Part shown: positions 5,571 through 21,926 of the stretch, piece by piece | Layout of the letters: each line of letters opens with the position of its first letter | How positions within the stretch are numbered: position 1 is the stretch's first letter | From: Sphingomonas sp. RT2P30 | GTDB taxonomy: Bacteria > Pseudomonadota > Alphaproteobacteria > Sphingomonadales > Sphingomonadaceae | Length of the DNA stretch: 64,000 nucleotides | Direction of reading: 5' to 3' | Assembly: GCF_036663795.1 (NCBI RefSeq) | Contig: NZ_JAXOJP010000007.1 | Coordinates: forward strand, 93,882 to 157,881 | Translations under genes and position numbers: made by a program | The notes under the pieces: generated by a model | What the model saw: only the letters and a program-made list of their open reading frames with translations | The model's database searches: none | What the model was told of the DNA's origin: nothing

Positions 5571-6665
5571 ATGATATCGACCGCTTCGATGAGCGGGGGA
5601 ATCGAAGCAGCGGGCGATATCGCCACCGGGGCCTTGCTGGGCCGCGCAATCGAGCCGCGCGCCGGCGAGGCAGCGGGCGGCGCGCACGGGCATGGCTTGT
5701 GTCTCAATTGCGGCACGGCACTGATCGGCGATTATTGCCATGCCTGCGGCCAGGGCGGCCATGTCCACCGCTCACTCGCCTCGATCGGGCACGACCTGCT
5801 GCACGGCGCGTTCCATTTCGAGGGCAAGATCTGGCGCACGCTGCCGATGCTGGTGCTGCATCCCGGCGCGCTGACGCGGCGCTATATCGCTGGCGAGCGC
5901 GCGCGCTTCGTCTCGCCGCTGGCGCTGTTCCTGTTCTTCGTTTTCCTGATGTTCGCGACGATCCACAGCTTTGGTGGCGAGTTGGAAGAGGTCGATGCAA
6001 CGCCCGCGGCACGGGTCGAGCGCATGGCCAAGTTCGACAAGGTCATCGCGGCGTCCGAGGAGCAACTCAAACGCGCCGAACAGAGCCAGGCAAAGGGCGG
6101 CCCGGATGCCCCCGACGCCGACGACATCGCGACCCTGCGCGGCACGATCGACGGCCTGAAGAAGACCCGCGATACCTTCGCGACGAGCAAGGACGGCAAG
6201 GAGCGCGTGACCTTCAGCACCTATCTCACCGGCTGGGCACCGCTCGACAAGGGCATCGCCAAGGCCAATGCCAATCCGGGTCTGGCGCTCTACAAGCTGC
6301 AGTCGAGCGCCTATAAATATAGCTGGGCGCTGATCCCCATTTCGGTGCCGTTCGTCGCCTTGCTGTTTCTGTGGAAGCGGCGCTACAAATTGTACGACCA
6401 CACCATCTTCGTCACCTACAGTCTGTCGTTCATGCTGCTGCTGGTGACGGTTTTCACGCTCGGCCTGGAAATTCACGCGCCAGGATGGATCCTCGGCCTG
6501 ATGCTCGGCTTCGGCCCGCCGGTGCATCTCTTCGCGCAGCTGCGCGGTGCCTATCAGCTGCGCAAACGCTCCGCCTTGTGGCGCACCGTAGCGCTGAGCA
6601 TGTTCGGCTTCGTTGCGCTCATGCTGTTCATAACGCTGCTGCTCGCGCTCGGCCTGATGGGGTGA
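5571..6665 (+). CDS. DUF3667-like membrane protein with an N-terminal zinc-ribbon
   Basis: CLNCGTALIGDYCHACGQ zinc ribbon followed by about five hydrophobic helices. The start is chosen at MISTASMSGG; the upstream extension is Arg-rich. It lies 45 nt upstream of the Hsp70 gene on the same strand. Confidence 0.65.
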   Translation: MISTASMSGGIEAAGDIATGALLGRAIEPRAGEAAGGAHGHGLCLNCGTALIGDYCHACGQGGHVHRSLASIGHDLLHGAFHFEGKIWRTLPMLVLHPGALTRRYIAGERARFVSPLALFLFFVFLMFATIHSFGGELEEVDATPAARVERMAKFDKVIAASEEQLKRAEQSQAKGGPDAPDADDIATLRGTIDGLKKTRDTFATSKDGKERVTFSTYLTGWAPLDKGIAKANANPGLALYKLQSSAYKYSWALIPISVPFVALLFLWKRRYKLYDHTIFVTYSLSFMLLLVTVFTLGLEIHAPGWILGLMLGFGPPVHLFAQLRGAYQLRKRSALWRTVALSMFGFVALMLFITLLLALGLMG

Positions 6666-19027: not shown

Positions 19028-20050
19028 TCAGTTGAACAGCCTGTCCTGTGTAGAAGCAGGCGGGTTCAGCCCGAGATGCTTCCACCCGCCGGCATTGAGG
19101 CAACGGCCGCGTGCGGTGCGCGCGATCAGGCCGAGCTGGATGAGATAGGGCTCGATCACTTCCTCGACCGTGTCGCGCGGTTCGCTGAGCCCGGCGGCGA
19201 GCGTTTCCACGCCGACCGGGCCGCCGCGATAGATGTCCGCGATCATCGTCAGGTAACGGCGATCCATCGCATCGAGCCCGAGCCCGTCGACCTCGAGCCG
19301 GTTGAGCGCGGCATCGGCGGCGGCAGCATCGACCAGCTCATGCCCGGCGGCATGGGCGAAGTCGCGCACACGGCGCAACAACCGCCCGGCGATGCGCGGC
19401 GTGCCGCGTGCGCGGCGGGCAATCTCCTGCGCGCCGTCGGGCGAGATGGCGAGATCGAGCAGCGACGCGGCGCGCGACACGACGCGTTCGAGCTCATCGA
19501 CGGTGTAGAAATGCAGCCGCACCGGGATGCCGAAACGATCGCGCAGCGGCGTGGTCAGCAGCCCCTGGCGCGTCGTCGCGCCGATCAGCGTGAAGCGCGG
19601 CAGGTCGATCCGCACCGAGCGCGCCGACGGCCCCTCGCCGATCATCAGATCGAGCGCGCGATCCTCCATCGCCGGGTAGAGCACTTCCTCGACCGCCGGC
19701 TGGAGGCGGTGGATCTCGTCGATGAACAGCACATCGCCATCCTCGAGATTGGTCAGCAGCGCGGCGAGATCGCCCGACTTGGCGATCACCGGCCCCGAAG
19801 TGGCACGGAAGCCGACGCCCATCTCGCGCGCGACGATCTGCGCCAGCGTGGTCTTGCCGAGCCCGGGCGGGCCGAAGAACAGCACATGGTCGAGCGCATC
19901 GCCGCGCGCCTTGGCCGCCGCGATGAACACGCGCAGATTCTCGCGCGCCGCCTTCTGCCCGACGAAATCGTCGAGGCTCTTGGGGCGCAGCGCGGCATCG
20001 ACATCTTCGCTGCGGCGTGCGGGGGTGATGAGGCGGTCGGTGTCGGTCAT
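19028..20050 (-). CDS. ruvB: Holliday junction branch migration helicase RuvB
   Basis: AAA+ motifs ([22 protein letters not shown]) and the RuvB winged-helix C-terminus. Confidence 0.95.
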
Positions 20051-20349
20051 TCGTTGCGTCCAAGCGCGCGCGGTGCATTGCGACTATGATGCAAGATGCG
20101 GATGATCAGCACGCCTTGGTCTATCGGGCGATAATATATGCGATGGGAGCGATAGGCGAAGCCACGGATGTCCTCACCGAGATCGCTCTCGGCAGCACCC
20201 GCCGACGTCAAATCCGCAAGCATCGCGAGCGCCTCGCGTAGTCCGCTAATATAGGCACTTGCAACCGTCGGTCCAAAGATCGTCTTGCTGTAAATCCTGA
20301 TATCCCGGACATCATCACGCGCCGCCGGCGCCAGGCGAAGCTTAGGCAC
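20047..20349 (-). CDS. parE: Type II toxin, RelE/ParE family
   Basis: 100-aa ParE-like protein ([21 protein letters not shown]...[22 protein letters not shown]). Its stop overlaps the ruvB start by 4 nt. Local GC ~57%. Confidence 0.8.
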
Positions 20350-20587
20350 GTAACTCCGGATCCTCGGCGATCACCTCGTCGAACACTTCCAGGCCGTCGC
20401 GCTCGATCACGCCCGATGCGAGACCCTCGTCGATCATCGCGCGAATCCAGCGCCGGTCATTCTGCTCCTGATCGTGCCTGATCAAATCGCGCAGATAGTC
20501 GGCCGCGTCGGCATAGGTGCCTTCGGAAATCCGCGATTCGACCCAGCTTTGCAGCGCCGCCGGCATGGAGATGGTGAGTTGCGTCAT
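20342..20587 (-). CDS. parD: Type II antitoxin, ParD family (RHH/COG3609)
   Basis: 81-aa protein (MTQLTISMPAALQSWVESRISEGTYADAADYLRDLIR), typical of the ParD antitoxin family. Overlaps the downstream toxin by 8 nt. Confidence 0.75.
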   Translation of the reverse strand: MTQLTISMPAALQSWVESRISEGTYADAADYLRDLIRHDQEQNDRRWIRAMIDEGLASGVIERDGLEVFDEVIAEDPELRA

Positions 20588-20832
20588 ACCGCGAATATAA
20601 CCCGATGCGGGCGATGCGCCAATGCGCGCTTGCCTAGCCGGCGTGTAGCGCGGTTTGCGCGCGCGGTGGCGAAACGCTCAAGCTCGCGCCCCTTGGCGCG
20701 GGAAGCTCGGCCGATCTTCTGCGCCTTCTGCGCTACGAAATCGACGAGGGTCCTGGGGCGCGGCGCGGCGTTGAGGTTTTTGTTGCTGCCGGCGGAAATC
20801 ATGAGCCTTTCGGTGTCGGTCATTTCATCCAC
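20584..20832 (-). pseudogene. Decayed duplicate of the ruvB 5' end
   Basis: The 82-aa ORF starts [39 protein letters not shown]. RuvB starts [39 protein letters not shown] remnant Walker A (RLGKRALAH vs GLGKTTLAQ) follows, then the frame ends at the parD start. Confidence 0.5.
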
Positions 20833-21176
20833 CCATCTTCGTCATAGGGTGGACGGAATACGCGAGTAACGCCCTCTTCGGGCTGCAACATCAAAATCAC
20901 AGTCTCCGGCGCACCCCACCGTCGAGACATAACAAATGCCGCGAATTCATCTTCGACATTCATGTAGTTCACACCGGCACACCAAAGCTCGAATTGAGGG
21001 TGCTTACTCCCTCCCGCTCGGTCGGAAACCTCCAAGAGGGCAGCGCCGTGACAGTGATCCTTGAGCCATACCTGAATCTCGGCGACGGGGTCGCTCACGA
21101 TCACAAATTCACCATTAATAAGCTCATCGACGCACGGACAACTGGCGACTAGCGCAACGCCCGTCACTTTGCTCAC
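20820..21176 (-). CDS. Hypothetical protein (118 aa) in a low-GC segment between ruvA and the ruvB remnant
   Basis: ORF with ~52% GC against ~68% surroundings. Contains Cys/His (CPCVDE...HCHG) and no recognisable family. Start overlaps the ruvA stop. Confidence 0.45.
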
Positions 21177-21766
21177 TTCGCCGCCTTGCGCAGCGCCAGC
21201 CGCACCAGCGCATCGAGACTCGCGCCCGCGCCCAGTTCCTCCTCGGCCGCACCCACGGCGGCATTGGCTTCTGCCGGGCGGAAGCCGAGGTTGAGCAGCG
21301 CGGAGACCGCATCAGACGCGGCGCTGCTTGCCGCCGCGACCGGGGTGACCGAGCCGAGAATCACCCCGCCGGCCTTGTCCTTCAACTCGCGCACGATGCG
21401 TTCGGCGAGTTTGGGGCCGACGCCGTTGGCGCGGCCGATCATCGCCTTGTCCTGGGCGGCGATGGCGCGGGCTAGTTCGGTCGGTTCGAGCACCGAAAGG
21501 ATCGCCAGCGCAACGCGCGCGCCGACGCCCTGTACCGCAGTGAGCAGGCGGAACCAGTCGCGCTCGTCGGGCCGGGCGAAGCCGACGAGGCGGATGAAGT
21601 CCTCGGCGACGAGCATCTCGGTGAACAGCGTCGCCGCTTCGCCGACGGGGCCGATCGCCGCGAGCGTCTTGGCCGAAGCGCCGACGAGATATCCCACGCC
21701 GCCCACGTCTATCACGGCATGGTCGATGCCGGTCGATTCAAGCCTGCCCTTGAGATGCGCGATCAT
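21173..21766 (-). CDS. ruvA: Holliday junction DNA helicase RuvA
   Basis: Starts MIAHLKGRL. Has the OB fold, two HhH motifs ([17 protein letters not shown]; [14 protein letters not shown]) and a C-terminal RuvB-binding domain. Confidence 0.9.
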
Positions 21767-21784
21767 TTGCGCGTGCTAGCAGTT

Positions 21785-21916
21785 CCTCCCCGGTACGGGG
21801 AGGGGGACCGTGCGAAGCATGGTGGAGGGGGCGCGCCACCAGCGTAGCGCTTGCGGCGCTCCCCCTCCACCACGCGCTGAAGAAGCGCGCGGTCCCCCTC
21901 CCCGTTCCGAGGAGGA
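21785..21916. repeat. Cluster of G/C-rich palindromes (CCTCCCC/GGGGAGG family) in the ruvC-ruvA spacer
   Basis: A 7-bp stem (cctcccc ggtac ggggagg), then a 16-bp inverted repeat GGTGGAGGGGGCGCGC/GCGCTCCCCCTCCACC with one mismatch and a ~19-nt spacer, then a further gcggtccccctcccc motif. Read directly from the sequence. Confidence 0.55.
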
Positions 21917-21926
21917 ATTAGGAGGA

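Follow-up and report, generated by a model that had tools for sequence, protein, structure and literature searches.

The window, a 64-kb stretch of the genome of Sphingomonas sp. RT2P30 (WIN in the comparisons, in which the other loci carry L-numbers), contains on its minus strand, in this order, ruvC, a palindromic element, ruvA, ORF118, ORF82, parD, parE and ruvB. From ruvA to ruvB the stop codon of each gene overlaps the start of the next one, the successive junctions being GTGA, ATGA, ATGA, 8 nucleotides (nt) and ATGA. ORF82, an open reading frame (ORF) of 82 amino acids (aa), is the subject of this report. The GenBank annotation lists a 79-aa version, the coding sequence U1839_09785 (P0001), which starts with MTDTERL at an ATG at 20821-20823 and is named a hypothetical protein. 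ORF82 is not a gene. It represents a pseudogene fragment, and its annotation is an artefact spanning a scar, a spacer and a promoter. The scar, a second copy of the ruvB 5′ end here called ruvB′, is very probably an inert product of recombination.

Counted from the ATG, ruvB′ and the 5′ end of ruvB align without gaps and share 79 of 103 nt. The local alignment score of 91 is far above chance (19.6 ± 2.5, maximum 29, in 300 shuffles). A repeat search identified the pair as a 103-nt direct repeat (19949-20051 / 20722-20824, 78%, family D1). It is the largest direct repeat of the region and brackets the spacer, the promoter and parDE, with the copies 773 nt apart from start to start. On the protein level, BLASTP aligned ORF82 with RuvB in residues 1-36 only (18/36 identities, E 1e-9). 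A tblastn search with RuvB residues 1-90 against the whole window recovered 20823-20716 (E 1.4e-7), and an nhmmer profile of 210-nt ruvB 5′ ends, built from about 70 Sphingomonas species, matched 20822-20722 at model positions 2-102 (E 2.8e-9). Similarity to ruvB ends at nt ~102-112, around codon 35, by every method. A chance similarity is ruled out by the alignment, the nhmmer profile, the repeat search and tblastn. The preliminary description of this DNA had quoted the 82-aa ORF and two peptide strings, all of which are present as described, and had read the ORF as a decayed duplicate of the ruvB 5′ end with RuvB 500 nt downstream. This reading holds for the first ~104 nt, but not for the rest of ORF82, and the distance from the end of ORF82 to the ruvB start is 534 nt. 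The parent gene is full length and retains all three Pfam domains; its protein is 98-99% identical to those of the nearest relatives, and its 5′ segment shares 101/103 nt with the ruvB 5′ end of the relative L006.

The divergence of ORF82 from its counterpart in a second genome (locus L081, described below) amounts to a nonsynonymous rate (dN) of 0.26 and a synonymous rate (dS) of 0.27, i.e. a dN/dS of 0.95. The flanking genes of the same two loci show dS values of 0.15-0.34 and dN/dS values of 0.03-0.14, and the real ruvB has a dN/dS of 0.027. Purifying selection on the ORF82 protein was accordingly not found. With a dN/dS of 0.95 and a divergence equal to the dS of the flanks, ORF82 is therefore regarded as a neutral pseudogene fragment, which combines collinear homology from the start codon, neutral divergence and the retention of an intact parent. 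The differences between ruvB′ and ruvB are spread evenly over the codon positions (9/7/8), with an excess of GC>AT changes. Residues that are invariant across about 70 Sphingomonas RuvB proteins have been lost in ruvB′, e.g. by the change of AALRP to AAPRP. No Pfam, NCBIfam or PADLOC family was assigned to ORF82. Rfam contained no RNA family for the ruvB′ remnant; only weak sub-threshold matches to microRNA families were obtained on the palindromic element (21732-21900), and these are spurious. At the end of the ruvB-derived part (20713-20730), four clustered substitutions relative to L081 (20717-20720) have created a 9-nt tandem repeat, GCGCAGAAG GCGCAGAAG, which looks like a templated or slippage-type mutation.

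Beyond nt 103, the comparison of ORF82 with ruvB yields a chance-level score of 23 against 17.3 ± 2.6 in shuffles, a value equalled in 21 of 500. This part consists of a spacer and the parDE promoter region. The spacer is an orphan sequence: nothing similar occurs in ruvB, at the ruvA 3′ end, in 83 related loci or elsewhere in the window. Searches by blastn-short and tblastx against all loci and the window gave chance-level matches only, and a profile of the ruvA 3′ end found nothing in the spacer even at E<=100. A plasmid collection held no match for the cargo segment, spacer included. Homologous sequence is present at the same position in L081, ~27% diverged, which equals the neutral rate. 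The statement that the ORF degenerates after its ruvB-like start has to be replaced: ORF82 is made up of three parts, ruvB′, the orphan spacer and the promoter, and does not represent a decaying RuvB frame.

Among 5.8 billion proteins, one other of the ORF82 kind has been found, P0002, with 78 aa and 58% identity. Its contig belongs to GCA_965191945.1 and constitutes locus L081, which carries ruvA, a different ORF of 180 aa, the remnant, parD, parE and ruvB with the same overlaps. Comparison with orthologous loci found the second ruvB 5′ copy only in RT2P30 and L081 among 83 related loci. The frame is open in both genomes, and the sole length difference is one 3-nt indel. Both share the junction between ruvB′ and spacer as well as the spacer itself. 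In addition, 5-6 identical derived substitutions are common to both remnants (positions 26, 48, 52, 62, 71, 103), while ~1.2 would be expected for independent remnants (Poisson estimate, P ~0.001-0.007). The shared junction, spacer and derived substitutions lead to the conclusion that the scar arose once, before the lineages split. The sequences nearest to both remnants are the ruvB 5′ ends of the clade WIN/L081/L001/L006, the members of which are roughly equidistant (ruvA dS 0.24-0.35). An origin from a distant donor, e.g. S. psychrolutea (L046), which carries ORF118, was rejected, the remnant being nearest to the ruvB of its own clade.

The divergence between RT2P30 and L081 changes sharply at ~20647. 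Mismatches amount to ~28% over 20823-20647 and to ~2% from 20646 through parDE into the ruvB 5′ end; the block of promoter and parDE (window 20047-20646 versus L081 8175-8774) includes a promoter region with 4 mismatches in 59 nt. The dS values of parD (0.075) and parE (0.041) are 3-5 times less than the 0.15-0.34 of the surrounding genes. It follows that the lineages exchanged the present promoter and parDE allele recently, at a time when the scar already existed. The two genomes bear no relation to each other upstream of the remnant, where RT2P30 has ORF118 and L081 the 180-aa ORF. As these unrelated genes both lie flush against the remnant, at least one replacement of the upstream cargo has taken place, bordered on the right by ruvB′. 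The 180-aa ORF (L081 7462-8004) has a signal-peptide-like N-terminus and runs exactly from a GTG in the ruvA stop to a TGA in the remnant ATG. It matched no family in NCBIfam or PADLOC.

Table 1. Features of the ruvA-ruvB region of Sphingomonas sp. RT2P30 and of the related hicBA module; positions refer to the window unless a locus is named.
Feature	Position	Strand	Remarks
ruvA, left border of the variable region	21173-21766	-	Pfam RuvA_N/HHH_5/RuvA_C
ORF118, orphan cargo gene	20820-21176	-	fills the space from the ruvA stop (GTGA overlap) to the ruvB′ ATG (ATGA overlap)
ORF82, composite non-coding frame over ruvB′, spacer and promoter	20584-20832	-	82-aa listing
ruvB′, dead copy of ruvB nt 1 to ~104 (codons 1-35), own ATG at 20821-20823	20720-20823	-	79/103 identity
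Orphan spacer ("segment b") between ruvB′ and parDE promoter, read through by ORF82	20647-20719	-	73 nt
parDE promoter region, encoding the RLGKRALAH...VIFAV tail of ORF82	20588-20646	-	consensus scan and cassette alignment
parD, antitoxin gene	20342-20587	-	TIGR02606 ParD family; overlaps parE by 8 nt
parE, toxin gene, TGA overlapping the ruvB ATG (ATGA)	20047-20349	-	Pfam ParE_toxin, E 1.7e-14
ruvB, intact	19028-20050	-	Pfam RuvB_N/AAA_lid_4/RuvB_C, E 2.3e-79
Parent copy, 5′ end of intact ruvB, downstream member of the direct repeat	19948-20050	-	repeat partner of ruvB′
hicB-like/hicA/ORF117 module	L046 6615-7382; L082 147-914; L083 1-521		

The parDE cassette combines a ParE toxin domain with an overlapping upstream parD and resembles the chromosomal type II ParDE toxin-antitoxin (TA) systems (PF05016 ParE_toxin; TIGR02606, a ParD family named for Caulobacter CC2985): the antitoxin gene comes first, the genes overlap and a promoter lies immediately upstream. 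It differs from them in that ParD scores just under the curated cut-offs (TIGR02606 E 2.7e-11, 43.3 bits, cut-off 46.2; Pfam ParD_antitoxin E 0.0024). ORF82 is not part of the TA system and only overlaps its promoter. A consensus scan placed the -35 box TTGGCG at 20617-20622 and the -10 box TATATT at 20594-20599, with a 17-nt spacer in between and 6 nt to the parD ATG. The same spacing of -35 box, -10 box and ATG is present in the same-type cassettes of L033, L062, L047 and L081. In L033, L062 and L047, the promoter follows directly after the ruvA stop codon, without a ruvB remnant. In all five cassettes the -10 box ends 6 nt before the ATG and no Shine-Dalgarno sequence is present, which predicts a leaderless parD transcript. 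CGCAT occurs three times across the -35 box and the promoter spacer (as ATGCG on the plus strand, at 20605, 20614 and 20622), and these repeats could be a ParD operator. The nucleotide identity of the same-type parDE between ruvA and ruvB in L033, L062 and L047 is ~77-79%, similar to that of the flanking genes there. In the closest species, L001 and L006, the gap is occupied by another parDE (56%/35% protein identity), and a remnant is absent. The exact sequences of ORF118 and ParE, queried with either V or M at residue 1, returned no record.

The ruvA-ruvB gap (20051-21172 in the window) is a hotspot of cargo-module exchange in Sphingomonas, and TA modules are what it carries most often. Across 75 loci of Sphingomonas and relatives, its length lies between -7 nt, with the genes overlapping, and 4049 nt; in the comparison loci L001-L080, ruvA occupies ~6001-6600 in each. 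Six more distant loci have overlapping ruvA and ruvB. The cargo comprises ParD/ParE of at least two types in 12 loci, a HicB-like protein (DUF7387) together with HicA in 6-8 loci, a 2-hydroxyacid dehydrogenase on the opposite strand in 11 loci and a GFA-family protein in 9 loci. A GH10 glycosidase and a ParA-like ATPase have been found as well. In ~25 loci, the longest ORF adjoining ruvB stops at the TGA inside the ruvB ATGA start, according to mechanical ORF calls. A literature search found no paper describing a ruvA-ruvB cargo hotspot.

ORF118, annotated in RT2P30 as hypothetical protein U1839_09790, belongs to a tiny orphan family with homologues only in L046 (64%), L045 (36%), P0004 and P0005. 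Its GC content is 52-57%, compared with 68-74% in the flanks. In L046, L082 and L083, the ORF118 relative is the third gene of a hicB-like/hicA/ORF117 module that abuts the real ruvB start, and the relatives lie flush against the real ruvB start in every case (L045, L046, L082, L083). The hicBA genes are missing in RT2P30. There, ORF118 directly follows ruvA, and the junction lies within AAGTGA, a sequence common to the 3′ ends of ruvA and hicA. This suggests a loss of hicBA by microhomology-mediated deletion at AAGTGA. ORF118 matched no Pfam, NCBIfam or PADLOC entry, and an AlphaFold2 model from a 3-sequence alignment was unusable (predicted local distance difference test score 45). Two metagenome scans, one with ORF118 and one with ParE, revealed no confirmed relatives and thus yielded no additional copies of the remnant. 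Between ruvC and ruvA, a nested inverted-repeat element is located at 21783-21917. Its outer arms comprise 32 nt, are 91% complementary and lie 71 nt apart; the inner arms comprise 28 nt and lie 3 nt apart. A related copy occupies the same place in L033, and the element is probably a repeat of the repetitive extragenic palindrome (REP) or miniature inverted-repeat transposable element (MITE) kind.

ORF82 is probably a chance frame over the ruvB′ scar, the spacer and the promoter, with a scar that arose once, in the hotspot gap of the common ancestor of RT2P30 and GCA_965191945.1. The type of the recombination event is inferred, and its direction rests on parsimony, because no before-state was found. 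An insertion of parDE by means of ruvB 5′ homology has an even chance of being the generating event. The donor would have been a small DNA molecule with the order spacer, promoter, parDE and first ~105 nt of ruvB. Its joining through the ruvB 5′ homology could have been a single crossover if the fragment was circularised; a linear one could have been joined by one-ended homologous plus illegitimate recombination. The module would thereby have been placed before an intact ruvB, in one step in the case of a single crossover, and the homology segment would have been left as a direct repeat. The upstream repeat, without a promoter-to-stop gene behind it, would have been decaying neutrally since. 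Its upstream neighbour would later have been swapped, resulting in ORF118 in RT2P30 and another gene in the sister genome. The end of the remnant (~20720) would be the left edge of the insert. The inserted DNA lies between two direct copies of the homology segment, as a single crossover would leave them. The preliminary description had regarded the remnant as a relic of the recombination that installed parDE and as a boundary marker of the acquired segment. A decayed ruvB 5′ copy, left by recombination at the cassette boundary, is confirmed, and the repeat structure makes an installation of parDE plausible; the arriving module could equally have been ORF118 with ruvB′, placed before a resident parDE. 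The boundary that it marks is an internal one between two cargo modules, whereas the outer boundaries of the island are the ruvA stop (21173) and the ruvB start (20050).

Several observations weigh against this course of events. No relative with ruvA-ORF118-ruvB lacking parDE was found as a before-state, and none with the spacer in another context. The 83 loci, the window and the plasmid collection provided no donor for the spacer, and the joint at nt 103-112 has no clear microhomology. Since same-type parDE stands between ruvA and ruvB without a remnant in L033, L062 and L047, parDE could be the older resident. A donor of this known type would have brought ruvA 3′ sequence instead of the spacer, and no trace of a ruvA 3′ end is present. 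The ORF118 relatives abutting the real ruvB start fit the reverse order of events equally well. The later exchange of the parDE allele (dS 0.04-0.075) blurs the history. Furthermore, within ~103 nt the remnant of the window carries 24 changes from ruvB and that of L081 only 15. The L081 copy may have been partly refreshed when cargo was swapped, or the asymmetry may be due to chance. The GC content of the remnant is 61% in the window (20722-20823) and 69% in L081 (8001-8108).

In the reverse order, parDE would have been the resident. A ruvA-[cargo]-ruvB(1-~105) fragment arriving from a close relative would have recombined homologously in ruvA, with an illegitimate joint immediately before the parDE promoter. 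On this view, the remnant would stem from the ruvB start of the donor, and what it delimits on the right would be the upstream module instead of parDE. In a variant, a tandem duplication of spacer, parDE and ruvB 1-105 would have preceded a replacement of the first parDE using ruvA and ruvB′ as arms. In favour of such a history, the ORF118 stop overlaps the remnant ATG exactly as the homologues in L046, L082, L083 and L045 overlap the real ruvB ATG, so that ORF118 and ruvB′ look like one unit. The scar-free parDE and promoter at the site in the distant L033, L062 and L047, with an identity of ~77-79% as in the flanks, agree with a resident cassette. So does the sister genome, in which a different gene flush against the remnant demonstrates an exchange of upstream modules at the ruvB′ border. 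The missing before-state and donor likewise count in its favour. However, this order requires an illegitimate in addition to a homologous joint, while the insertion of parDE requires a single crossover. A recipient of the known ruvA-parDE type should have left a ruvA 3′ end upstream of the promoter, where the ruvA 3′ profile finds nothing. Moreover, the ruvB most similar to the remnant is found within its own clade and not in the only species in which ORF118 relatives are known. A resident parDE is on balance a tentative and rather unlikely alternative; insertion of parDE keeps its even chance, and other routes share what is left.

A longer remnant has also been considered, with ruvB nt 1 to ~210 including the Walker A codons and a junction at a TGGCG microhomology between ruvB (GCTGGCGCAG) and the -35 box. 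The preliminary description had pointed in this direction, as it took RLGKRALAH for a Walker-A-like string retained from RuvB. The string is encoded by CGGCTAGGCAAGCGCGCATTGGCGCAT, the 3′ part of which is the -35 region of the parDE promoter. A near-diagonal 27-mer, GGCTAGGCAAGCGCGCATTGGCGCAT, matches ruvB GGCTCGGCAAGACCACGCTGGCGCAG in 20/27 positions at an offset of only 3 nt from the main diagonal, and both genomes have the motif in identical form. The match was equalled in 4-5 of 1000 dinucleotide shuffles, a suggestive but post hoc figure, as the length of 27 nt was picked after the match had been seen. The 3′ half of the 27-mer (TTGGCGCA) is conserved at the same spacing in the remnant-free cassettes of L033, L062 and L047, and the last 8-10 nt of the motif are homologous to their promoters. 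The location of the motif in the low-divergence promoter/parDE block explains its conservation. From nt 104 up to the motif, 80 nt are no more similar to ruvB than random sequence in both genomes, and yet their mutual divergence is only neutral. This segment cannot be hyper-decayed ruvB, because the divergence between RT2P30 and L081 is only neutral there. A tblastn search with RuvB residues 53-74 against the window found other AAA+ genes (~56.2 and ~57.5 kb), not ORF82. The 210-node ruvB profile left the Walker-A-like region of a 260-nt target unmatched even at E<=100, a search of low power, since the profile ends at nt 210 inside the motif. ORF82 also lacks the Walker A pattern GxxxxGK[ST] (GPPGLGKT in RuvB): its ATRRLGKRA has neither the leading glycines nor a Thr/Ser after the Lys. 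The RuvB_N P-loop domain (PF05496) was not detected, and no Pfam family matched ORF82 at E<=0.1. Between ruvB′ and the string stand 73 nt without homology, and the string itself is half made up of the parDE -35 box. Its retention from RuvB is not supported; the Walker-A resemblance is most likely coincidental and the longer remnant is improbable.

Hardly any weight is given to a functional ORF82, either as a small truncated RuvB N-terminus or as a translated bridge of arbitrary sequence between ORF118 and parD. In the bridge version, ribosomes would be passed along the chain ruvA-GTGA-ORF118-ATGA-ORF82-ATGA-parD-parE-ATGA-ruvB. The open frame in both genomes with its single 3-nt indel, the overlap of start and stop with both neighbours and the preserved ruvB initiation context speak for a function. 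An open frame is uninformative in this respect, because 55% of the 45-codon stretches taken arbitrarily from the GC-rich window are open as well, and ORF82 stayed open in 55-81% of the simulations of neutral substitution. The ATGA overlaps arise automatically, because ruvB and parD start with ATG-ACN. The dN/dS of 0.95, the loss of invariant RuvB residues and the absence of a detected domain contradict a functional protein. As parD has its own promoter, which ends 6 nt before the ATG, it needs no translational coupling. A related proposal considers the ruvA-ruvB gap as a dedicated cargo slot, in which ruvA and the ruvB 5′ end would serve as homology arms, stop/start stitching would hand ribosomes on to ruvB, ORF82 would act as a bridge and ruvB would come partly under the autoregulated parDE promoter. 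It is considered doubtful at best. An att-site duplication by a site-specific integrative element that supplied ruvB with a replacement 5′ end can, like chance similarity, be practically dismissed: islands targeting the 5′ ends of repair genes are known, e.g. SpyCI at mutL, as stated in the abstract of PMC4129442, but the 1.1-kb gap contains only ORF118, ORF82, parD and parE and no integrase, recombinase or transposase, the repeat of 104 nt begins exactly at the start codon, and neither the 83 loci held another such repeat nor the plasmid collection a match.

Two known systems are comparable. In Escherichia coli conjugation assays for one-ended recombination, a truncated circle had undergone a single crossover in 56 of 60 events, and 109-950 bp of the homologous locus were duplicated in the sequenced clones (PMC3240628). 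The ruvB locus likewise shows a short segment of the target gene, here ~104 nt, repeated around an insert, with the downstream copy in the intact gene. Unlike in these assays, it reflects a natural, ancient event reconstructed from sequence, with an upstream copy that is 23% diverged and a 73-nt spacer at the joint. In the displacement arrays of type VI secretion system effector-immunity, Rhs and contact-dependent inhibition loci, incoming modules anchored on a conserved flank push older parts aside and leave fragments and orphan immunity genes (PMC5361080). Common to both are a hotspot bounded by conserved genes, swaps by flank homology and a stranded fragment of a conserved gene at a module boundary. 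A partnerless gene is also shared, here ORF118 without the hicBA of its relatives. The anchor, however, is the 5′ end of the housekeeping gene ruvB, where the arrays use the 5′ part of a toxin gene. There is just one stranded fragment, limited to two genomes, and the cargo consists of TA and metabolic genes instead of secreted effectors. ORF118, moreover, is not a known antitoxin or immunity gene.

The ruvB 5′ fragment is of a well-known kind; this instance is new and ordinary, and the hotspot is its more interesting by-product. For the annotation, U1839_09785 and its counterpart in GCA_965191945.1 are to be corrected to a pseudogene fragment of the ruvB 5′ end that continues in frame into a spacer and the parDE promoter. 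For the island, an order of events emerges: the scar formed before the split of two Sphingomonas species, then the upstream cargo was replaced, and the exchange of the parDE allele came last. Cargo recurs in this genus at the ruvA-ruvB junction, as a rule a tight operon; the site could serve for studies of how an essential repair operon takes up cargo without silencing of ruvB.

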